From a virus, in the UHGV virus genome UHGV-0034108: a stretch of DNA of 64,000 bases; one strand, 5' to 3'. Each line of letters begins with the position of its first letter. Position 1 is the stretch's first letter. A program made the translations under genes and the position numbers. Below, in pieces: positions 26,191 to 57,613 of this stretch. The notes under the pieces were generated by a model. The model saw nothing but the letters and a program-made list of their open reading frames with translations. It made no database searches and was not told where the DNA came from.

Positions 26191-26805
26191 TTAATGAATC
26201 CAATGATCTCCTATACTTGCTTCTGCCGGAATAGGAAGTTTCTTATAGTATTTTGCTGCTGCTTTTGCCATGATATCTTGCATAACTTTGGCAAAATCTT
26301 CTGCAATTTCTTTTGGACATTCGCAGTCACATTCATCGTGGACCATAACACAGAACAATATAATTCCAAAGTAGCCATGTTTGACTATCCACTCAAAAAG
26401 GTCTGCGGCAGCTTGTTTAAGCACAATGGCACTACCTCCCTGTATAGGATAGTTGAGCACATTCTTTCCAAACCAGTCATGTCCTTGTCGTAGGTGTTTG
26501 ACAACCATCTGTGCAATATCATCACCTGTCCCTTTATGATATAGGTTATAATCCTGCATAAATCGCCAATCAATTCTGTCCTCAACAGCACGCCATTCTG
26601 CCCATTGAGGCCAATAAACCCTATGACCGGTGGTACTGTTGATGACAATATACCCATGCTTTGCAACGAAATCAGACGCCTCTTTCTTGAATTTAGCCAT
26701 ACCAGGCATACCTTTAAGAAGATTTTGGACCATTTCTCTTGCTTTATCTATAGACATGCCTATATTTGCTGATATTGATGTGCCATCAGAACCATATCCT
26801 ACTGC
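26191..26805 (-). CDS. DNA polymerase I family (family A) exon 2
   Basis: AVGYGSDG..(motif B continuation), NYPIQGGSA, motif C VMVHDE; aligns with Taq pol motif B/C region. Confidence 0.7.
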   Translation of the reverse strand, partial: AVGYGSDGTSISANIGMSIDKAREMVQNLLKGMPGMAKFKKEASDFVAKHGYIVINSTTGHRVYWPQWAEWRAVEDRIDWRFMQDYNLYHKGTGDDIAQMVVKHLRQGHDWFGKNVLNYPIQGGSAIVLKQAAADLFEWIVKHGYFGIILFCVMVHDECDCECPKEIAEDFAKVMQDIMAKAAAKYYKKLPIPAEASIGDHWIH

Positions 26806-28037
26806 CATTTTGTTATCTTAAAAGCTCTTTATCTTTTAATTCTATATGTTTCCATATAGTTCAGACTATATCATCATCCTCATATTGAGGAGTCGAGCAC
26901 TCGTGTTCCCATTATTAAGTGAGCTTTTCAGGGATTAGTCGTTGAACCTTCTATCTACTTTTATGCTCTTCGATAGCTTGGCTGCTGATTACCGTAGATT
27001 TCTCCTTAGGCTTCCAGCAATTCACTCGATTTGCTACACGAAATTACTTTCGTGAGGTTCACTAAATTCTGATATTTATATTCATGACAATAGTAAGGAT
27101 TTGCATATAAGTAATGAAGAAGAAGTGTTAAATTGGTTTTATCATAAACAAATAAAGTATAGCAGTCTTTAGTGTTCAGACGGACAGTACTTTTTATGCC
27201 GTATGATTCAAGAAAAGTTTGAATGCGTAAAAGCCATTGTTTTGAACATGACTTTAATCCCCAACGATAATGACCGCAAGTTCCGTCTCCATCAAAATAG
27301 CCACGAATCATGTCCCATGTTATATCTATACATGGATTCAGATTGTGATGTTTTTTTGAAGCAATATTTAATGTGGCGGAGAACCAGTCTGCTATTTGCT
27401 TTGAATTTATACTTGCATTGTACATATAATGCATTTCACCACATTGTGTTGTGTAAGGTCTGCTAAATATGGAAACTCCATTTCCAAACCAGTCCTTATA
27501 CTTCAATACCACATATTCTTTTCCTGAATAAAGCACTATGCGATGAGAACGTGATGTATTTGTTATATGTCCATCTGCGAATATATATCCTAACCAATAA
27601 TTAGCCTCTATTGTGTTGTTTGCAAACTTATTTTCCCATGTATTATTTCTGCCAGAGCCACGCATCTGCAATCCGAGTCTATGTACATGCCAAGTTATAG
27701 TACTGCTTTTGATGTTAAAAGCGTTACCAATTTCTTGATATGTGCAGTTAGAATAATACATTTGTGTGAATAAGTCATCTTGTTCTTTTGACCAACTTTT
27801 TTCTTCTTCTCGTGTTCTTTTTATGTTATTCCTTACTAATACATCATATACAGTAGTGACGGAACATGAATATTTATCTTGAAGTTCTTTCCAAGACATA
27901 CCGTTAGCATAATCAGCTATAAGTGCAGTATCATTTACTTTTTTCATATTTATTTTTTTGCAAGTTTAGTTGATTTAGACTTCCGTATTCTTGTTCAAAA
28001 TAAATCACTTACTGTTTATAAATCATTTTGTTAATGT
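26806..28037 (-). mobile_element. group I intron (inferred) carrying LAGLIDADG homing endonuclease, inserted in polA motif B
   Basis: Exon1 stops 4 codons after ..RQKAKSAEF; exon2 resumes with AVGYG; free-standing endonuclease ORF between; splice sites after U (..GAGUUU) and after G (..AAAAUG) fit group I rules; boundaries +/- few nt. Confidence 0.55.
27006..27947 (-). CDS. LAGLIDADG homing endonuclease (intron-encoded) with N-terminal HTH domains
   Basis: LGYIFADGHIT and IRGYFDGDGTCG motifs; two HTH-like segments at N-terminus. Confidence 0.8.
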   Translation of the reverse strand: MKKVNDTALIADYANGMSWKELQDKYSCSVTTVYDVLVRNNIKRTREEEKSWSKEQDDLFTQMYYSNCTYQEIGNAFNIKSSTITWHVHRLGLQMRGSGRNNTWENKFANNTIEANYWLGYIFADGHITNTSRSHRIVLYSGKEYVVLKYKDWFGNGVSIFSRPYTTQCGEMHYMYNASINSKQIADWFSATLNIASKKHHNLNPCIDITWDMIRGYFDGDGTCGHYRWGLKSCSKQWLLRIQTFLESYGIKSTVRLNTKDCYTLFVYDKTNLTLLLHYLYANPYYCHEYKYQNLVNLTKVISCSKSSELLEA

Positions 28038-29501
28038 AAACTCGGCGGATTTGGCTTTTTGCCGCAAGTCTGGTCTCAATTTCTTGACATCATGGACATC
28101 TACATCCTTCAGCTCATCCGGAAAACATAGTTTAGCATAGAGATTATGAGTATCTATACCGTGTGCAAAGGCATCGAGGAGTTTCTTTTCGTTCCACACA
28201 TCTGCCTGTACACGCGACTCCTCAGCGGAGAAATCACAGGATATGAATAAGTTACCTTTTTCCGCTATGAAGCAAGAACGACATACCTTACCATATTCAT
28301 CTCGTGCTGGAAGATTCTGTAAGTTTACAAATTTTACCTGTTCTGGAAGAAGTACCTTCAATCTTGCAAGGTCAACATTGTTCTTATTGCTTCCGCAGGA
28401 CATTCGTCCAGTCACAGTACCAATTTGCTTGAACTCGGTGTGAAGTCGTCCTGTATTTGGATTGATAAGATTCAGGTGTCCTTGCCCATAAGATGTGACA
28501 TTCTTCTCAGCGCCCTTATAGCCGTAATAGAGTTCAAGAAAATCATCAGCAATTCCTTTCTGTGTAATTATCAAATTTTCCAATGCAGAGTCACGCTCTT
28601 CCTTAGTTTTCTTATCACGTGTAGTGGTATTGAATCCCAAAGCTTGCATTACAGGTATTACTTGACGGGAACTACTCCATTGTACAAACACATCGGGAAG
28701 TGCGTTATCTGTAGGCTCAAAAAGTGAAGGTTGTGTTACTGAAGATACAAATTGCTTGTTGAGTTTCGTATTTGACCTAACGTAATCATCAAGTTTCTGT
28801 TTGTAATCTTCAAGCTCCTTCTTGTCACTTTCCATCTTTGCCTTCCACTGAACTTCATCGAGCTTCACTCCACACCATTCGAGATATGCTATTGCAGGAA
28901 CAAATCTATTTTCTACAATAAAAGCACGAAGGCAATTACGATTTTCCGCAACAATCATTTGCGCTTTTCTGATATCTTGCAGGTACATGACATCATGTGC
29001 AGCATAGATAATACCCTCCGGTGTCAGTCCTTTAAGAGCAATTTCTTCCTGAAAGGATTTGTCTATAACAATTCCTGTATTGCGTTCAAGAACATCTCCG
29101 AGATTGAACGACACTATACCTGGCTTATAACCAAGATAGAGTGTTTGTTCGCAGATCATCGTATCATAAACACGCAACGGTATAATTTTGTGATTATACA
29201 GAAACTTGAGGTCAAATTTGAGATTATGTCCAATCAGATATGAGTTTTCAATAATCCCCTTGTACTCTTCCGGCTTGACAGATAGACAGTCTACAACTAT
29301 TGCAGTAGTCTCACCGGAATTAAAATCTTTATAACCAAACTGCATTGACGTAAGAGTGTTTACATGACAATCAAGTCCTGTTGTTTCAGTATCGAACTGT
29401 ACTACAGGCCAACCACGAATGAGGTCTATGCTTTCCTGCACAGTCAAAGGGCTTACATTCTCATCCGAAATGTCAAGCCTGTCACTAACGAGATAAATCA
29501 T
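28038..29501 (-). CDS. DNA polymerase I family (family A) exon 1: 3'-5' exonuclease plus polymerase motif A and start of motif B
   Basis: Exo I FDTETTGL; motif A ISCDFSAEESRV; ends RQKAKSAEF (motif B R..AK...F). Confidence 0.75.
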
Positions 29502-31973: not shown

Positions 31974-32132
31974 GATAGTTAACTAAAAAAGTAAGGGAGA
32001 ATCTATGGGTAAACTAATGACAAACAACATCGCTATAGATGATTCTCCCTTACTTATGATTATACTTATGTCCTCTAAATGTTTTTCTTACTGCAAATAT
32101 AACAAAAAAGTTAGTATAATATAACAAATGTG

Positions 32133-45282: not shown

Positions 45283-45295
45283 GATATTATATTTA

Positions 45296-46324
45296 ATGAT
45301 TACGCAATGTTATACCTAAACTCGTTTTTATAAGCCAAGGCAGCGACCACGAGCCTATCAAAGAGTTTGTCTCCGAATGTCCTGCGGTTGAACTTGTAGC
45401 AGAACTCGTTCAGATAGCTTTGAAGGTAGTCGGGTCTGATGTCGTGATAGACGTCCAGCAGGAGCCGTTTTGCGTTGCTGATTGCGATATGAACCCACGG
45501 GAGTAGCTTACCGACCTGCTTTGGCTCTATGACCTGATGCACGTGTTTACTTACGAGTGACTTTATATTTGTATATGACGTTGAATCGTCAGAAGTTATG
45601 GTTGAACTTGGATTGACATACATCCTCACCTTTCCGTCAATGGTTTCCGACTTGAGATCGTTGATGACGAGCATCTTGATGTGCTTGACTGCGGTAGGCT
45701 TGTCGGAGGTTTTCTTCTGAGTCCCATCGGAGGTCTCGGCCAGGACGAGGACCGCAGTTTTCTTCTGGCTTCCGCGCCCGCGTTTCTGCGGCTCGTCCTT
45801 CTTGCCCTCAGGGGTCTCGGTGGAGAAGAACCCCTCGTCCATCTCCACTATCCCACACACCTGGTATTGCGCGTCCCGCTTGCCCATGATACTCCGAAGC
45901 TTATGAAGCATCGCCCAGATTGGCATATAGTTCTTGTGACCCAGCTGACGCTGGAGCTCCGATGCGGAGAAACTCTTCCGCGTCGAGGTGAGCAGGTGCA
46001 TCGCCGTGAACCAGTACATCAGTGGCAGTTGGCTGCCGTGCATTACCGTATTCGCCTTCAGGCTCTGGCGGTAATGGCAGCCCTTGCACTCGAAGCATTT
46101 CTTATCCTTCTTCCAATAGTGCTCCGTGCAGCCACACTTTGGACAGACAACGCCCTGCTTCTCCCTGTATTCCCTAAGCTTGTTCTCGCAGCTTTCCTCA
46201 TTGGGAAACTCCTGCATAAAGTCTATAAGTTTCATTGTATCTTCGTTTGTTGGGACAAAGATACTGTTCGACTGTGCAAAAACGCTGCGCAAGTTATGAC
46301 TTAGGTATAACATTAATTATTCAT
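45296..46324 (-). mobile_element. IS1595-family insertion sequence
   Basis: Perfect 14-bp inverted repeats AATGTTATACCTAA at 45306..45319 and (rc) 46305..46318, extended imperfect IR to about 24 bp; single transposase ORF. Confidence 0.7.
45300..46235 (-). CDS. IS1595-family DDE transposase with N-terminal zinc ribbon
   Basis: CPKCGCTEHYWKKDKKCFECKGC zinc ribbon; likely start at Met27 MKLIDFMQEF inside the IR. Confidence 0.7.
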   Translation of the reverse strand: MKLIDFMQEFPNEESCENKLREYREKQGVVCPKCGCTEHYWKKDKKCFECKGCHYRQSLKANTVMHGSQLPLMYWFTAMHLLTSTRKSFSASELQRQLGHKNYMPIWAMLHKLRSIMGKRDAQYQVCGIVEMDEGFFSTETPEGKKDEPQKRGRGSQKKTAVLVLAETSDGTQKKTSDKPTAVKHIKMLVINDLKSETIDGKVRMYVNPSSTITSDDSTSYTNIKSLVSKHVHQVIEPKQVGKLLPWVHIAISNAKRLLLDVYHDIRPDYLQSYLNEFCYKFNRRTFGDKLFDRLVVAALAYKNEFRYNIA

Positions 46325-47195
46325 AATTTTTATTTGTTTCGACCGAGGATTCTCATCCTCACGCACTATGCCTGACGACTTTTTATACTCGCATAGTCGA
46401 GTTACCCTTGCTTTTTCCTGAGAGAAATATTATATTATTATAATATTTATCTCCCTTTAAAGAAATATAAAACTTTCTGTATAAGGAGGGGTCTGGGGAA
46501 CCACCGGAAATCAAATCCCCCGGAAATCTCAAAAATCCGGGGAATTTCATTCCTGATGAGAGAAAGGACGAGGAGCGGAAACCTACCAGGGAAGAGACAG
46601 TCTACCTCTCGAACAGAAGAAAGACCAAAGCTATTTCTCTTGGTCCTTCAAGAAAGCCTTGAAAGCTTTTAACTCTGACTTCTTCACGGGATAAAGAAAC
46701 CCCATAAAGCAAACCAGAACAAGTCTTTCCTCAGGCTTTTTAGTATTTGATTTTTCCATGGCAGAATCAAAGAGCTAAAAATCAAGAAGTTAAGAATCAG
46801 ACTCACGCACGTGTATACGCACGCGCGAGGAAACCCGAGCCGGAAAGAGAAACTCCAAAACCGAGCGGCGACCGGTAAGCAATAGTTAAATGCGCCGGGC
46901 CCTTGGAGTCGGACTTTCGCGGAAAGGGCATAGAAATGGCCTTCTCAGCCGTTTTTTCTCTTCGGACGATAACTTATATGTCTGAGAAAAGATAATGGCT
47001 CAGAGGGGCATTTCTGAGGAAAGTCTATTTCTGACTAAAAAATCAAGGCGGAAATTCAAGTCAGAAATAGGCTATGGCAGTCGAATCAAACCTCAACAAG
47101 CCGTTGGGAGCAGGTTAAAGTCCATAAGAAAAACTTATGGATAAAGCCCGACTTTGGTAGTCAGTTGGGTCAGATTCGACTGCCAGTTGGGTCAG
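46325..47195. other. approx. 870-nt noncoding region rich in nested hairpins and direct repeats (candidate structured RNA or origin/regulatory region)
   Basis: No ORF over 60 aa; 12-bp IRs CTATTTCTGACT/AGTCAGAAATAG (47025..47036 / 47059..47070) and GGCAGTCGAATC/GATTCGACTGCC (47076..47087 / 47173..47184); 12-bp direct repeat CAGTTGGGTCAG x2; CCCCGGA/TCCGGGG hairpin; GC-rich blocks. Confidence 0.4.
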
Positions 47196-47228
47196 TCAAG
47201 GAACAAAAAAGAGAGGCCCGAAGGCCCC
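47196..47228 (-). terminator. Rho-independent terminator with UUCG tetraloop
   Basis: Minus strand GAGGGGCC-UUCG-GGCCUCUC then UUUUUUGUUCC, 5 nt after stop of 47233..47586. Confidence 0.8.
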
Positions 47229-47232
47229 TCGA

Positions 47233-48566: not shown

Positions 48567-50129
48567 ATGGCTGATATTAAAGAACTTGCAGAAAGGCTGT
48601 TGCAGCTCGGATACACGAAAGACAATCTTTATATTGATGGTGGTGATACTAACGATGGTGGTTATTATGGTGGTGAGCTTGCACCTGCTGTTGTTAAGCC
48701 TAAACCTGTGGTGGTTAATCTTAGAACATCGAGAGTTAGTAAAGATTTTCCTATAAGTCACTCTGCTTTAGATCATACAGGAACTCCAAATGAGGAATCT
48801 TCTTTCTTAATAAGCAAAGGTTGGGATAGCACATACAATTTATTGACTAATAATTGCAGTGATTATACATGTAGGTTTCTTGAGGATGCTCTTGGTATAT
48901 CGTTAACGAATGGTATAACAACGCCTGGTAAACTGCGCAGAGCTATGGCTAAGTCTCCAAATCTGTTGGATACATTTAAAACGCCGGATGGTGTTTCAAC
49001 TATACAGAAAATACAAATACCGTGGTACGATTACAGAAAAGCCTTAGAAGCACAACGGCAGAGGGATTTGTATGATTATGAACAAAATGTAAAAAAGAGT
49101 CAGGGCGAACAAGTTGCTAAGTATGGCGTTAATAAACGGATTGACAAATTAAACAAAGAACATCCGAAACTTCAATATTATATAGATAGCGACGGGAATG
49201 TCATAAGGCATGAAAATCAATATGTGTATCCTTCTTCCAAGCCTTATGCACACGGTGGTCTGCTGCGCAGATTTGACGGCGGGGGACAAAAGGAAACAGC
49301 AGAAGTGCTTCCAGAAGTTGTTGTAACTCCATACGGAAATTATGTTAACTATACCGGTGAGGAAACGACGGTTCCATCCATTTCTGATTTCTTTGATGCT
49401 AAAGCTAATGCGGCAAGGGTTAATGCAGTTGGTAATATGTTGAATACAAAACATCCTGTGGTTCCTGCGGTCCCGAATGCCTTGGCCAGAAACCTGCTTG
49501 TACGTTTCGGCGTTTCCGATGAAAGAGCGGCTGGACTTCTCGGCTATGATAAGCATCCGCATACTTGTATAGCTACAACTACATCGCAATATAATGATCC
49601 GGAAGCTTTTGTTCCCGGTAACATTACATTTGATAAAAACAGGACTGGTTTCGTTCAGGTAGGTGATTATGATTATATTCCTGGAGATCTTGTGAATCTT
49701 TATTATAAAGGTACTCCTTTTCACTCAACAATGGTTACGGGTGTTACAAAGAGTCCTCTTGGTCCAGAATACGGATCGCCTATGTTGACATATTCTAATG
49801 GCGGAGTTGATGTTCCGGGGGAAGAAACCCACATGCGATATAATATGAATAATCTGTATGACGATGGGGATGATGAGACTCCGGACTTTGGACTTATGCC
49901 TGGAAATGTAGGAATAGGTCAATACAAAGTATTCAGATATGTGGGTAGTCCCAGCAGGAAGATTGATTGGGGTCGTGAATACAACTCAAAGTACGGATAT
50001 ACAGTGGATGAGAAAGGTAATGCTGTTGAGCCTCGTGATAAAATGTACGATTTGTTGGCAAAGATGCAACAGTATGGATACAAGTTTGAGAAAACTTCGG
50101 ATGGCAAGCTTAGGGTAGTTCGTAAATGA
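48567..50129 (+). CDS. two-domain putative peptidase: N-terminal PPPDE/DeSI-like (His then NNC) and C-terminal CHAP/NlpC-P60-like (Cys..His)
   Basis: N-term HSALDHTG ... LLTNNCSDYTCRFLE; C-term HTCIATTTSQY ... GDLVNLYYKGTPFHSTMVTGV. Confidence 0.5.
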   Translation: MADIKELAERLLQLGYTKDNLYIDGGDTNDGGYYGGELAPAVVKPKPVVVNLRTSRVSKDFPISHSALDHTGTPNEESSFLISKGWDSTYNLLTNNCSDYTCRFLEDALGISLTNGITTPGKLRRAMAKSPNLLDTFKTPDGVSTIQKIQIPWYDYRKALEAQRQRDLYDYEQNVKKSQGEQVAKYGVNKRIDKLNKEHPKLQYYIDSDGNVIRHENQYVYPSSKPYAHGGLLRRFDGGGQKETAEVLPEVVVTPYGNYVNYTGEETTVPSISDFFDAKANAARVNAVGNMLNTKHPVVPAVPNALARNLLVRFGVSDERAAGLLGYDKHPHTCIATTTSQYNDPEAFVPGNITFDKNRTGFVQVGDYDYIPGDLVNLYYKGTPFHSTMVTGVTKSPLGPEYGSPMLTYSNGGVDVPGEETHMRYNMNNLYDDGDDETPDFGLMPGNVGIGQYKVFRYVGSPSRKIDWGREYNSKYGYTVDEKGNAVEPRDKMYDLLAKMQQYGYKFEKTSDGKLRVVRK

Positions 50130-50733
50130 CAGTTACCTTTCTGAATGCTCCCTGTGAAATCATCTTGTCGTATATCTGAGCGTCTATAAGCGAGAACGGA
50201 AAGACAAACAACGGCTCATGGTAGCATTCGTGAATGCCTGCGGTTGTCTTCAGTTGTATTTCGCCAGAGATGTCAGACTTTATTATCTCCGCGTCATTAT
50301 ATATAAGGGAGTATCGGCATTCTTCACTCCCGCTTTTAATGCGACCAAAAGCAAATCCGCCATTCGTTTTATATAGGTCACATGAACCATAGTTGACCGT
50401 CAGGTTTGATGCTGAGTTCTTGCATGCCTTCCTTACGACGACTGACTTTGTGAAGTCACGTTTGAGAAGCACTGTGTCTTTCTTCGAATGCTCCATTAAC
50501 CGGCATTGCTCAGCCGCTTCCGGACATACGAATTGACCTATTGTGTAGTTCAGAAGGTTCAGTGTTCTTATTGTCACCCTCTCGTAGACGGAAAGATTTT
50601 CACCGTTCTCTATCTTTTCCTGTGATTTGTATTGACCGTATATGACGTATATGAACCCGTTGACGATTGTGATTATCAGAGTTGCTACAATCATTGCCGG
50701 AAGCATTTTCGCAATTAGTTTTCGGTTTTTCAT
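50110..50733 (-). CDS. membrane-anchored hypothetical protein
   Basis: N-terminal TM MLPAMIVATLIITIVNGFIYVIY. Confidence 0.5.
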   Translation of the reverse strand: MKNRKLIAKMLPAMIVATLIITIVNGFIYVIYGQYKSQEKIENGENLSVYERVTIRTLNLLNYTIGQFVCPEAAEQCRLMEHSKKDTVLLKRDFTKSVVVRKACKNSASNLTVNYGSCDLYKTNGGFAFGRIKSGSEECRYSLIYNDAEIIKSDISGEIQLKTTAGIHECYHEPLFVFPFSLIDAQIYDKMISQGAFRKVTVIYELP

Positions 50734-51595
50734 CTTGTTTTTTGAGAGATTACTCTCGCGCGTGATTAAAGTTTTGAAAGTAAAAAGTCTAAAAAATTAA
50801 GACTTGTTATGTTTTATTGTCTTGTTAATGATGTTTAGCCGGAGGCAGGTGGGGTGAAGGTGGTTGAGCTTCTTGAGCAATCTTCTCCCCCTCCCACGAA
50901 GCCGGTATTTTCTCCGGCATGGCAGGATTAGAAGATTACCGGTGACAGGCTGTCGTGCTTCCTGGTGTGAAGTATGGTCCCGCCTCCCTCGTTCCGTCAC
51001 AGTGCCAGTACGGACTTCCCGAGATTAGCGATCTGGACATCGCCCGCTGGACCCTCTCAGGAACGGCAGGGTCTCACGCCTGTCGTCTTCTCCGGGTTTT
51101 GGTTCTCCAGCTGCCCCTCAACAGAGTCTTTTAAACTACTGCCGACCTTAAGGTCTGACCTACGGCTTTTTCAGATGTTTCGAGTGGCTACGCATTTCTG
51201 CGGACGAGCTACATCACGTTTGCTTTTGATTCGGTGACAGCGCTGTGTGTTCCGCACTACAGGCCTTTGCTTTCTCTGTCACCGTCGAACGAAAAAATCC
51301 GCCCGCAAGTTTCCTCGTCTCCGAGAAATAGCCACTCGAACTTGCAGGCGGATTATATATGGAGTTGCAATCCATAGTCCTATTTTGTACTGCAAGAGTG
51401 GGCTACCAAAAGCAGCACAACAAAGGTATGGATTATTGTTGAAAACTGCAACACTATTCACATAAATTTTCATATTTTTCTTCTTTTTCTGTCTTTAATA
51501 CAGCAAATGAAACAAAAAAGTTTTCTATATAACAAGTTTGTTTTGTTTATTGATAATAAACCACTATATTTGTCGCAACAAAAACACTTATAGCC
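50734..51595. other. approx. 860-nt noncoding GC-rich region (candidate ncRNA / divergent regulatory region)
   Basis: No credible ORF; GC-rich blocks, hairpin GACCCT..AGGGTC; contains minus-strand terminator. Confidence 0.4.
51286..51354 (-). terminator. Rho-independent terminator (minus strand)
   Basis: 16-bp stem AATCCGCCCGCAAGTT / AACTTGCAGGCGGATT (15/16 paired) followed on minus strand by UUUUUUCGUUCG. Confidence 0.6.
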
Positions 51596-51739
51596 ATGAG
51601 GATGTATACCAGAGCTTTCAATAAGATGAGCGAACTTAACAAATTCGTAAATGAGAATGGAATCCAGAAAGACAACATAGTCAGTATCTTTCAATCAGTC
51701 GACGAGACATACCTCCTTGTATATTATGGCGAGTAGTTC
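51596..51739 (+). CDS. small protein (47 aa), first gene of + strand late operon
   Basis: MRMYTRAFNKMSELNKFVNENGIQKDNIVSIFQSVDETYLLVYYGE; below ORF-track size cutoff. Confidence 0.35.
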
Positions 51740-55348: not shown

Positions 55349-57613
55349 GTGACTGACACTGTAATCATACCAACCAATGAATATCAGACTCCGATAACGA
55401 AGGAACTGCTTGATATGTACCCGGATGAGGTGCAGGAGCAGTTCCTTGAGTTCGTCGATACAGTACCTCTTATAAAATACATGATAGGCACTGACAGGAA
55501 GCGTGCCCGTGATTTGGCGAGGGATTCTAAGGGCAGGATTATAGTGGATATAACTCATCCCCATATATTGGAGGATATGGATTACTTCCGTCCAGCTGCA
55601 AAGTTCTTTCAGGAGAACAAATGTTATACTTTGCTTCAGCCGAACTCCAATTCCAAGAGTGAGTTTGGTAAATGGCTTTCTGAAGAATTTAGACGTTGCC
55701 GTGAGGGTTATGTCCGTGAATCTGATGGCGAGTGGGTCACTGGGCAGATGTATTGGTTTCTCAACTACTGTCCGATAATGCTGAACAGACTTGCTCCAGG
55801 GACTGATATATATGTTAGGATTGAGGAGTTTCCAGATTTCTGGGAAGGTATCTATTACAGATTTCATTACATAGATCAGGCTCGTCATTCCGGAAAACAC
55901 TGTATGGAGCTTGCTCGCAGAGGTTGCGGGAAAAGCTACTCACTCGCATCACTTATGTCACATAACCTCATACTTGGGGAAAACGAGGTAGCCAAATCGC
56001 GTGTTACGACTGTTTTGACGGCAGGTACAAAGGAGTACCTTGCGGATAAGGACGGTACGTTCACGAAATTTTCACCGATGATTGACTTCTGTGCTAATAA
56101 CACATTCTTTCCAAGGCTGATGCTGAAGCGCTCTCCTTCCGAGATGATATGGAGGATGGGTTACAAGAATAGCAATAAGAATGAACTCGGTTCTCTCAAT
56201 TCAGTGATGGGACTTTCCGTAAAAGATGATGAGGGAAAGATTAGAGGAAAACGAGGATATATCTTGTTTGAGGAGATGGGTAACTACGCAAACTTCAAGG
56301 AGGTGTGGGATAACGTGCGCGACTCTGTAAAGGAAGGAAGTCATGTGTTCAGCCTTTTATACGCTGTAGGTACTGCTGGTGATGACGAGTCTGACTTCTC
56401 CGGTGTCCGTACAATTCTTTATAATCCTTCAGCGTATGAGGTCTATGCACTTGTAAATGTTTATGATAAAGTAGGCAAGGGTACAAACAAGTTTGCATAT
56501 TTCTTTCCATCATATATATCAAGAGCCGGATGCATGGATAAGGATGGAAACTCAGATGTCGTGAAGGCACTCTTCGAGATACTCATGGAGCGGTGGATGG
56601 TAAAGCAGGGTGGAGATGCCAAGTCACTCTTGTCAAGAATAGCACAGATGCCTATCACACCGGCTGAGGCAATCCTCAAGGTGAAGTCTAACTTCTTTCC
56701 TGTGACAATGCTTACAGAAAGATTGAGGCAGCTCGACCAGGACCCGCACGCCTACGATGACGTGTATGTCGGGACTCTTATTGAGGTGAATGGTAAGGTT
56801 GAGTTTCGAGCAACGGATGATGTTCCTATAAGGCAATGGCAGGTGGACAATACTAATCAGGGTGCTCTTGAGATATACGAGATGCCTGCATCCGGACATA
56901 TACCAAGCAACAGGTATATAGCAAGTCTCGACCCTGTTGATAATGATCAGGCTGAATCCACATCATTTTCCAGTTGCTTTGTGTTCGATCTGTTCACTGA
57001 TAGGATAGTCGCTGAATACACAGGACGAATGCCATTTGCGGATGATAATTTTGAAATGGCAAGACTGATGTGCTTGTTTTACAATGCAACCATACTTGTT
57101 GAGGCCAATAAGAAAGGCTACTATGCGTATTTTGCAAAGAAGCATTGTACCTGGCTGCTTGCGGACTGTCCTGAATATTTACGAGATAGGCAGCTTGTGA
57201 AGTATTCGATGTTTGGATCTGCACAGAAGGGTGTGACAGTTAATGCTCCTATAATTGGGTTTGCTAATGGGCTGATACGTGACTGGCTGTGCAAGACAAC
57301 AGCTGTTGAGGTTAAAGATGAGCATGGTCAGATTACAATCCAGCAAATACCTAATCTTTACAGACTTCGCAACAGGGCACTTATTGAGGAGTTGATAGGC
57401 TACTCGGCAGAAAAGAATACAGACCGTGTACGTTCTCTTGCCCAGCTTATGCTGTACAGGGAGCAGTTTATAATTCTGTATGGCGGTTCACCTGAATCAG
57501 GTGATGTGTCGAATGATGATGTTTCGTCTGATGAGTTCTTTGATCGTGACTGGAAAAGACAGACAGGATCTTATAACGATTTTTATGAGTACATGAAGCA
57601 GTTTTTCAAATGA
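55349..57613 (+). CDS. terL: terminase large subunit
   Basis: 754 aa; Walker A RRGCGKSYS; typical ATPase-nuclease size and neighbourhood. Confidence 0.75.
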   Translation: MTDTVIIPTNEYQTPITKELLDMYPDEVQEQFLEFVDTVPLIKYMIGTDRKRARDLARDSKGRIIVDITHPHILEDMDYFRPAAKFFQENKCYTLLQPNSNSKSEFGKWLSEEFRRCREGYVRESDGEWVTGQMYWFLNYCPIMLNRLAPGTDIYVRIEEFPDFWEGIYYRFHYIDQARHSGKHCMELARRGCGKSYSLASLMSHNLILGENEVAKSRVTTVLTAGTKEYLADKDGTFTKFSPMIDFCANNTFFPRLMLKRSPSEMIWRMGYKNSNKNELGSLNSVMGLSVKDDEGKIRGKRGYILFEEMGNYANFKEVWDNVRDSVKEGSHVFSLLYAVGTAGDDESDFSGVRTILYNPSAYEVYALVNVYDKVGKGTNKFAYFFPSYISRAGCMDKDGNSDVVKALFEILMERWMVKQGGDAKSLLSRIAQMPITPAEAILKVKSNFFPVTMLTERLRQLDQDPHAYDDVYVGTLIEVNGKVEFRATDDVPIRQWQVDNTNQGALEIYEMPASGHIPSNRYIASLDPVDNDQAESTSFSSCFVFDLFTDRIVAEYTGRMPFADDNFEMARLMCLFYNATILVEANKKGYYAYFAKKHCTWLLADCPEYLRDRQLVKYSMFGSAQKGVTVNAPIIGFANGLIRDWLCKTTAVEVKDEHGQITIQQIPNLYRLRNRALIEELIGYSAEKNTDRVRSLAQLMLYREQFIILYGGSPESGDVSNDDVSSDEFFDRDWKRQTGSYNDFYEYMKQFFK

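Follow-up and report, generated by a model that had tools for sequence, protein, structure and literature searches.

Among the large RNAs encoded by phages and prophages, the ROOL and GOLLD families, whose function is unknown, are often located near tRNA islands; ROOL RNAs fold into many helices with several pseudoknots, GOLLD RNAs exceed 800 nt in length, and both families are without a known protein partner (PMC12286853). The region described here, positions 50734-51595 of a 64,000-nt stretch of the virus genome UHGV-0034108 (the whole stretch is referred to as the window), belongs to a crAss-like phage and is proposed to contain the gene for a structured RNA of approximately 580 nt that is read from the minus strand (50838-51416). 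This crAss RNA resembles ROOL and GOLLD in its size, in the prediction of at least two pseudoknots and in its position in a slot that holds the tRNA genes of relatives, although the likeness is one of kind only. It differs from both families in that it matches neither covariance model, even when the element alone was searched at E-values of up to 10, in its origin from Bacteroidota phages of the order Crassvirales and in the possession of a promoter-proximal module with a terminator-like stem. ROOL and GOLLD self-assemble into homo-oligomeric cages.

The tRNA arrays of crAss-like phages, such as that of ΦcrAss001, occupy the same position, at the transition from the accessory or replication side to the beginning of the late operon, and the same predicted leftward promoter stands ahead of a tRNA gene in one relative (L014). 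The crAss RNA differs from a tRNA by being about seven times longer and by giving no tRNA match with ARAGORN or Rfam. The put RNA of phage HK022, the EAR element of Bacillus and the late leader of phage lambda with its terminator are promoter-proximal elements that act on the transcribing RNA polymerase; put consists of two simple stem-loops and EAR comprises about 120 nt. Like these elements, the crAss RNA places a predicted structure right after a putative phage promoter, and the polymerase would have to pass a terminator-like signal; unlike them, it adds a folded core of 450 nt and has no similarity to them in sequence or model. With the leaders of riboswitches and attenuators the crAss RNA has in common a predicted pseudoknot beside a terminator-like stem and an open reading frame (ORF) downstream on the same strand. 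However, it is the loop of the terminator-like hairpin, rather than one side of the stem, that would engage in the pseudoknot; the genes that follow are unrelated from one lineage to another, and the element is several times longer than known leaders.

The comparison with all families of Rfam 15 by means of cmscan, which had been suggested in an earlier note on this DNA that was drawn up without database searches, assigned the element to no family. Only noise was obtained for the element at the gathering threshold in the whole window, at E-values up to 5 in the segment 46000-52000 and at E-values up to 10 with the element and its group B homologue, and the same applied to Rfam searches of the homologues from groups B to E; these negative results include ROOL, GOLLD, OLE, tRNA, riboswitches and introns. 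A description of such an RNA in crAss-like phages was not found in the literature. The template of a diversity-generating retroelement, or another kind of repeat, was also considered and rejected, as the window contains no matching repeat. Judged by these comparisons, the predicted RNA is a new family with a distinctive 5' module, so far confined to a narrow group of crAss-like phages.

In the reading that we favour, with a probability of about 0.5, the region is the gene for a stable, highly structured non-coding RNA of approximately 580 nt, the folded RNA being the product, and the terminator-like hairpin T within it would act as a partial or conditional stop. The predicted elements are listed below in the 5' to 3' direction of the RNA; all RNA sequences are read on the minus strand, and the 3' end is approximate, having been set at the end of the GC-rich folded core.

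51421-51428, minus strand: -7 box TAccTTTG of the predicted leftward promoter P_left, with a -33-like GTTG 20 nt upstream (51449-51452).
50838-51416, minus strand: proposed structured RNA of approximately 580 nt, its 5' end predicted from the promoter.
51405-51414, minus strand: 5' strand of helix P1, UGCUUUUGGU, pairing with 51221-51230.
51396-51405, minus strand: 5' strand of the likely pseudoknot PK, UAGCCCACUC, complementary to the apical loop of the T hairpin.
51358-51376, minus strand: small hairpin UAUGGA-UUGCAAC-UCCAUA, followed by a conserved UAUAUAA.
51298-51352, minus strand: T hairpin with a GC-rich stem of 14-16 bp and a loop of 27 nt.
51292-51297, minus strand: run of six U residues (an A-run on the plus strand) directly after the T stem.
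51233-51283, minus strand: hairpin Ha, GGUGACAG...CUGUCACC, in groups A and B only, preceding the 3' strand of P1.
51221-51230, minus strand: 3' strand of helix P1, AUCAAAAGCA, downstream of the T hairpin and Ha.
51174-51215, minus strand: motif Hb, with the closing helix GAUG/CAUC, the loops CUCGUC and UAGCCACUC and a variable inner hairpin.
51122-51166, minus strand: pair of hairpins, GCCG..GACC-UUAA-GGUC..GGC and CAG.AGU...ACU.CUG, seen in A and F and in reduced form in B (by eye).
50968-51121, minus strand: core pseudoknot domain with the five helices Px, Py, Pz, Pw and Pv.
51106-51111 and 51046-51051, minus strand: core helix Px.
51064-51085, minus strand: core hairpin Py.
51055-51063 and 51016-51024, minus strand: core helix Pz.
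51027-51044, minus strand: core hairpin Pw.
50993-51014, minus strand: core hairpin Pv.
50838-50967, minus strand: 3' domain, comprising helix PM, the loop GACCAUACUU and the tentative helix PL.
50970-50979, minus strand: loop GACCAUACUU, counted with the 3' domain.
50979-50987 and 50841-50849, minus strand: long-range helix PL, tentative in view of an alternative local hairpin that is possible in B and C.
50876-50886 and 50930-50940, minus strand: long helix PM, which recurs in B and F.
50754-50837, minus strand: AU-rich spacer between the RNA and a 207-aa gene, containing the box CACGCGCGAG (50754-50763) and, at 50779-50805, a weak hairpin with a U-run.

Relatives were gathered from the same genomic slot, for which the terminase and the adjacent 142-aa late protein served as anchors. 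The core is carried by four lineages, namely group A (the window and its close relatives L001, L003-L009, L011 and L041, which are 90-98% identical to it over the whole region, L011 at 90%), group B (L013 and L034), group C (L031, truncated by the end of its contig) and group F (L256). Types D (L012 and L023/L036) and E (L015) share with these lineages only the initial part of the architecture, about 150 nt, and most other relatives contain a short gap in the slot. Accordingly, the core was compared in four lineages (A, B, C and F) and the 5' module in six (A to F); alignment was by eye for the 3' domain and for some of the 5' module. No DNA match to the elements of A, B, D or E and no protein match to the 142-aa protein was obtained among GenBank phages, and a search of GTDB genomes yielded one relative, which is without the element. 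Two pattern searches of IMG/VR gave nothing that was retained: GAGTGGCT..GACGAG..CACG occurred in at least 120 stretches, those examined being chance matches or already-known contigs, and AAGTATGGTC..GACANCGC gave two chance matches in coding DNA of high GC content.

Evidence for a structured RNA is provided by the core, the sequence of which is about 57% identical or less between lineages, with the helices kept. In the alignment of A and B, 95.1% of the cells are paired and both sides have changed at 14 of 33 pairs, a result that was matched by none of 500 shuffles, and controls with slid partners gave 30-44% paired cells. A covariance model, termed R1, was built from the A and B sequences with Px left out; it scored 189.6 bits in the window, 129.5 bits in B, 52.5 bits in F (E-value 2e-12) and 31.7 bits in C (E-value 5e-6). 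The sequences of C and F, absent from the seed, were thus matched at the expected place and on the expected strand, and a search with R1 of 0.92 Mb of terminase-anchored crAss-like loci detected nothing else below an E-value of 0.09. When all four lineages were aligned, 94.6% of the cells were paired, both-side changes were present at 23 of 32 pairs, and again none of 500 shuffles reached these values. Helix Px, which pairs across Pz and would thereby generate a second pseudoknot, covaries at each of its six pairs in an alignment that was not fitted to it. These figures apply to few lineages, with a shuffle control that ignores relatedness and nested helices that were aligned to the model.

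The closing helix of motif Hb reads GAUG/CAUC in A, GCCGC/GCGGC in B, CUGGCG/CGUCAG in C and AUCGC/GCGAU in F, and its pyrimidine-rich loops CUCGUC and UAGCCACUC are kept in all four core lineages. Folding energies gave z-scores of -3.2 for the minus and -2.6 for the plus strand, and the compensatory changes in four lineages were regarded as the more decisive indication of structure beyond chance.

Since Watson-Crick covariation fits both strands, wobble pairs were used to discriminate between them. In the covariation set of the core, G-U pairs of the minus strand are present at nine pair positions, in comparison with one position with A-C, which corresponds to G-U on the plus strand; the hand-curated helices yielded 14 G-U and 2 A-C pairs, and single changes within group A follow the course A-U to G-U to G-C. 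The energy of the consensus fold is -122.6 for the minus strand versus -100.7 for the plus strand; the z-scores of the single sequence do not separate the strands. An unfiltered, strand-neutral helix search returned equal counts of G-U and A-C, which is attributed to many spurious helices, only the covarying ones being informative. The G-U excess, the fold energy, the predicted promoter, the start of P1 and the U-run together point to an RNA on the minus strand.

The 5' module begins with helix P1, which starts 5-10 nt after the -7 box. A G-U pair of P1 in the window is replaced by G-C in L011, and in F every pair is flipped with respect to A (UAUCAAAAGC/GCUUUUGAUA); the helix comprises 16 bp in C (L031), at least 13 bp in L012 and 8 bp in L023. 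The segment that follows can pair with the apical loop of the T hairpin, where the 3' strand of PK, GAGUGGCUA, is located at 51329-51337. In A, this strand pairs with UAGCCCACUC with one bulge, and the corresponding pairs of strands are UCGGGAAGG/CCUUCCCGA in B, UAGGAGC/GCUCCUA in C, ACUGCCAGC/GCUGGCAGU and GACCGG/CCGGUC in D, CACAGG/CCUGUG in E and GUCACUCCA/UGGAGUGGC in F. The best complement of the T loop lies 16-23 nt after the -7 box in each of the six lineages, with differing sequences, and it is the constant position taken together with the changing sequences that makes a pseudoknot likely. A small hairpin and an AUAUA tract ahead of the T stem were also recognised by eye in the other lineages, and the order of small hairpin, conserved UAUAUAA, T stem and U-run is common to all six.

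The T stem, which contains one G-U pair when read on the minus strand, is kept through compensatory changes in B, C, D, E and F, and in all six lineages it is followed by a U-run (U5 to U9 or longer). The GC-rich stem and the U-run correspond to those of an intrinsic terminator. The loop of 27 nt, in contrast, is longer than the 3-8 nt of such signals, so that T is missed by a simple terminator scan, and the covarying helix P1 uses sequence past the U-run, which does not agree with a hairpin that marks the 3' end of a transcript. According to this analysis, T is an internal stem embedded in a predicted pseudoknot and not simply the terminator of the RNA. It may stop or pause some polymerases, and the conservation of P1 across the U-run suggests that the read-through RNA matters. 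The arms of hairpin Ha read CGGCU/AGCCG in B.

A side observation concerns group A only, where the T loop (51316-51341, minus strand) holds an inverted copy of the Hb motif (51182-51208, plus strand), CGAGUGGCUA...GACGAG. The loop could pair either with the 5' strand of the pseudoknot or with both Hb loops (10 + 6 bp). The sequence GAGTGGCTA is found exactly twice in the window, in the T loop and in Hb.

The primary sigma factor of Bacteroidetes recognises promoters with a -7 box TAnnTTTG and a -33 sequence TTTG that is situated about 19-21 bp upstream. P_left fits this consensus at -7 and only partially at -33 (GTTG). Its motif ACAAAGGTA is conserved in A, B, C, D and L014 at a distance of 124-178 nt from the start of the 46-aa late gene, with the variants TAcaTTTG in F and TAtaTTTG in E. 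In L014, the box is located about 10 nt upstream of a minus-strand tRNA-Leu gene, on account of which P_left is predicted to be a leftward promoter for RNA genes.

From these elements a course of events can be proposed. Transcription by the host RNA polymerase would begin near 51416, the Bacteroidetes-type promoter being oriented divergently from the late promoter, and the first 125 nt or so would fold compactly, the 5' end being held in P1 and the next segment forming a pseudoknot with the apical loop of T. The T stem and the U-run would probably halt or pause a fraction of the polymerases, which would result in a short form of about 125 nt. Polymerases passing T would complete P1 and then synthesise the GC-rich core with the second pseudoknot (Px/Pz) and the long 3' helix. 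The folded RNA would be the functional product, as tRNAs are in the slot of related phages, and the downstream gene for a small membrane protein would merely be co-transcribed. In this scheme we infer the start and the end of transcription, partial termination at T, the stability of the RNA and an action in trans.

The preference for a stand-alone RNA is based on the variation of the genes downstream, the occurrence of tRNA genes in the slot of relatives, the cases of D and E in which no ORF follows, and the size and complexity of the fold. Minus-strand tRNA genes are present in the same slot in L014 (tRNA-Leu) and L002 (tRNA-Met), and ΦcrAss001 carries about 23 tRNA genes upstream of its late operon; no tRNA gene was detected in the window by ARAGORN, and the element has no match to RF00005 of Rfam. 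The minus-strand ORF behind the RNA encodes a small membrane protein with one or two membrane helices in each case. L001 and L011 have a protein of 86 aa, group B one of 92 aa and F one of 163 aa, compared with 207 aa in the window, and none of these proteins is homologous to another. The 207-aa protein has no relatives in IMG/VR. Homology between the window and L001/L005 ends at 50743-50750, just before the ATG, so that the downstream gene has been swapped and the RNA kept.

Several points weigh against a stand-alone RNA and have to be set beside these data. The membrane-protein gene follows the RNA on the same strand in all four core lineages, and in F only about 25 nt separate the last helix from the ATG, the RNA of that lineage constituting, in physical terms, a 5' untranslated region. 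The evidence for independence that D and E provide comes from RNAs without the core, which possess the 5' module only. Where the RNA starts, where it ends and how stable it is are matters of prediction, no convincing terminator was found at the 3' end, and helix PL is uncertain. Loop-shuffle tests of PK in single lineages gave modest support, with p-values from 0.003 to 0.7. The family is also small, as the core is known from four lineages and the 5' module from six, and the alignments of the 3' domain and of a portion of the 5' module were made by eye.

The main competing explanation, less likely but to be taken seriously, is that the element is a cis-acting leader, a long regulatory 5' untranslated region in which an attenuator embedded in the pseudoknot would gate the membrane-protein gene in response to a factor or to timing and the core would sense a signal or control translation or stability; the gated protein may be a lysis or envelope protein. 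A leader is favoured by the membrane-protein gene that regularly follows the core and by the spacing of only 25 nt in F. Additionally, promoter, terminator-like stem with U-run, structured RNA and ORF follow each other on one strand, the U-run accompanies T in six of six lineages, and a separate promoter of the ORF is not evident. The membrane-protein gene is moreover convergent with the gene for a large protein whose relatives carry weak Glucosaminidase, YkuD, LysM or SLT domains, and the cassette may act on the cell wall. However, the downstream proteins are non-homologous and were exchanged at a breakpoint just upstream of the ATG, L043 and similar relatives have an equivalent gene, presumably expressed from the same promoter, without such an RNA, and the slot in relatives holds tRNA genes, which are products and not regulators. 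With its approximately 580 nt, about twelve helices and two predicted pseudoknots, the RNA also far exceeds known riboswitch and attenuator leaders in size. A conserved antiterminator that could replace T was not found in an inspection by eye, which is weak evidence, the option CUUGCAG/CUGCAAG being restricted to group A, and the 5' module occurs without a minus-strand ORF behind it in L015 (type E) and L023 (type D).

The earlier note had interpreted the region as a GC-rich stretch with a short minus-strand transcript that ends at a hairpin followed by U6. The GC-rich character was borne out, as the core 50838-51416 has a GC content of 0.537, compared with 0.42 for the window, and is flanked by AT-rich DNA (0.27 for 50734-50837 and 0.26 for 51417-51595). 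The hairpin is likewise present, with arms at 51298-51311 and 51339-51352 that form 14 bp, or 16 bp with two A-U pairs. The strand proposed for the transcript agrees with our prediction and a putative promoter was indeed located upstream of the hairpin, but with a promoter at 51421-51428 and an end at the U-run the transcript would measure about 125 nt and not 200-300 nt. The hairpin, moreover, appears not to terminate a small RNA but to lie inside a larger one, with P1 pairing beyond the U-run and the loop predicted to form a pseudoknot with the 5' segment. Two further stems, GACCCT..AGGGTC and GTGACAGG..CCGTCAC, exist in the sequence as described, but they do not belong to the conserved helices and clash with those that covary. 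Of the earlier proposal of a small RNA, a late-promoter control region or both, the control region agrees with the AT-rich right part, which corresponds to the late-promoter region. The GC-rich 450 nt, left unexplained in the note, are the main feature in the present reading.

A short minus-strand RNA ending at the hairpin and U6, the remainder being promoter or control DNA and the GC-rich stretch a functionless spacer or decayed gene, would be in line with a conserved promoter about 125 nt upstream of a strong hairpin with U-run, and the 5' module is the only part that is common to six lineages. This explanation is nevertheless improbable, as the GC-rich stretch keeps at least five helices via compensatory changes in four lineages at an identity of about 57% or less, and the covarying helix P1 needs sequence past the U-run.

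A DNA-level element, such as a replication origin or a packaging or recombination site between divergent modules, is slightly less probable still. The region is located at the strand switch between modules beside AT-rich DNA, the cassette on its left was exchanged at a sharp boundary marked by a CGCGCG box, and CACGCGCGAG is present in inverted orientation at 46819-46828 and 50754-50763. On the other hand, the minimum of the cumulative GC skew (46732) falls outside the region, iterons or repeats are absent from it beyond one inverted 9-mer, and the CGCGCG box is missing together with the AU-rich spacer in F, which keeps the RNA. The compensatory changes with a G-U excess on one strand, the helix at the predicted start site and the predicted pseudoknots argue for an RNA.

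With respect to coding capacity, the non-coding character assumed in the earlier note was supported, in that no ORF is conserved within 50734-51595 according to the comparison of relatives, six-frame peptides and stop-codon read-through. The statement that no ORF exceeds 74 aa has to be corrected, the longest one comprising 87 aa (50974-51237, plus strand). Its conservation is broken by indels of 1, 2 and 2 nt between the window and L001, which is about 95-96% identical over the region, and six-frame peptides of the window (A) and the diverged homologue L013 (B) have none in common in any frame. Read-through of TAG or TGA opens no full-length frame across the region. Stop-codon reassignment or frameshifting occurs in some crAss-like phages. 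A protein-coding gene hidden in this way is hardly credible: frames of 177 and 188 codons do arise with TGA read-through and L001 has an ORF of 156 aa that a gene caller annotated in L041, but indels of 1 and 2 nt shift the frame between close relatives, no peptide is kept between A and B, and the large terminase, portal and major capsid proteins are intact under the standard code.

The assignment of the window to the crAss-like phages follows from the portal protein, the large terminase (55349-57613) and the major capsid protein, which match crAss-type families; the terminase has 59% identity with its counterpart in Bacteroides phage ΦcrAss001. A leftward gene block at 19-46 kb includes replication functions (DNA polymerase and helicase), and a rightward block extends from 51596 to the terminase and capsid genes, so that the label late operon given to it in the earlier note is reasonable. 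The two blocks are separated by accessory genes and two ORF-free stretches, of which 50734-51595 is the second, bordered by the minus-strand ORF 50110-50733 on the left and by the ATG of the first late gene (51596) on the right. Searches for defence systems and against Pfam and PHROG matched almost nothing among the flanking genes. The right part of the region contains two further elements.

51565-51572, plus strand: -7 box TAtaTTTG of the predicted late promoter P_late, 24 nt upstream of the ATG at 51596.
51500-51525, no strand: near-palindromic motif ACAGCAAATGAAACAAAAAAGTTTTC between the two divergent promoters, overlapping the direct repeat D4.

The box of P_late reads CTATATTTG or CTATCTTTG in relatives. 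The near-palindromic sequence GAAACAAAAAAGTTTTC at 51509-51525 is present in every relative, irrespective of the presence of the RNA, and is probably a control site for late transcription. On this sequence evidence, the AT-rich segment 51430-51595 is a divergent promoter and late-control region. The direct repeat D4 comprises 51 nt with 73% identity (32062-32112 and 51472-51522) and includes the near-palindromic motif; as the copy at 32 kb carries a minus-strand TAtaTTTG box, D4 suggests a regulatory site common to two promoters.

The first ORF-free stretch (46403-47232, about 830 nt) is purine-rich on the plus strand, is 89-95% conserved in L003-L008 and contains the minimum of the cumulative GC skew. 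It may represent another RNA gene or a replication origin. The equivalent place in L014 is taken by a tRNA-Leu gene, and no similarity between this GC-rich region (46.4-47.2 kb) and 50734-51595 was detected by blastn or by model R1. At its downstream (minus-strand) end, a pistol self-cleaving ribozyme was identified at 46338-46402 (minus strand, 55.7 bits compared with a gathering score of 34.5), which is kept in relatives, even in the distant L012 (81-143); a leftward transcript would be cut by it just ahead of the next genes. Immediately downstream of the ribozyme, the window carries an inserted segment (45295-46320) where L005 has 134 nt; this segment contains an ORF for an IS1595-family transposase (45300-46313, minus strand) with the Pfam domain DDE_Tnp_IS1595 and a zinc ribbon.

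The accessory genes between the two ORF-free stretches are swapped as cassettes among phages that are otherwise 88-98% identical. Examples are the window segment 47688-48459, with short ORFs only, versus 1492-2511 of L003 with a 323-aa gene, and 48591-50742, with genes for 520 and 207 aa, versus 3269-4791 of L005, the genes of L001 and L005 encoding 410 and 86 aa. The inverted copies of the 10-mer CACGCGCGAG (plus strand at 46 kb, minus strand at 50 kb) are situated on either side of the 3.9-kb accessory cassette, ACGCGCG has exactly two copies in the window, both within these sites, and in groups A, B and D the RNA spacer has a CGCGCG box at its left end. Additionally, a group I intron (26842-27087, minus strand, 92.4 bits) is located between ORFs in the region of the DNA polymerase (27006-27947 and 28023-29501; 26191-26808 lies beyond). 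The large terminases of L005-L009 comprise 1149-1150 aa with a LAGLIDADG domain (for example L005, 9388-12429) and probably contain an intein; the window terminase has 754 aa and is without this domain.

The crAss RNA could tentatively be regarded, at somewhat less than even odds, as the founding member of a new Crassvirales class of autonomous, abundant RNAs that act as scaffold or cage, decoy or catalyst, in parallel to ROOL and GOLLD, with a place in the tRNA slot, a conserved 5' module in which a pseudoknot and a terminator are embedded, and interchangeable 3' domains (that of A, B, C and F, that of D and that of E). The crAss-like phages are among the most abundant viruses of gut ecosystems and their non-coding RNAs are little known. 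Large phage RNAs without an assigned function form a small set, represented by ROOL and GOLLD, which the predicted RNA would extend by a new family from phages of another host phylum. The family is small and well delimited, which makes it practical for structural and transcription studies. A stop signal that is apparently built into a pseudoknot and bridged by a helix raises the question of whether a conditional terminator sets the amounts of the full-length RNA and of a possibly lysis-related membrane protein in these phages.

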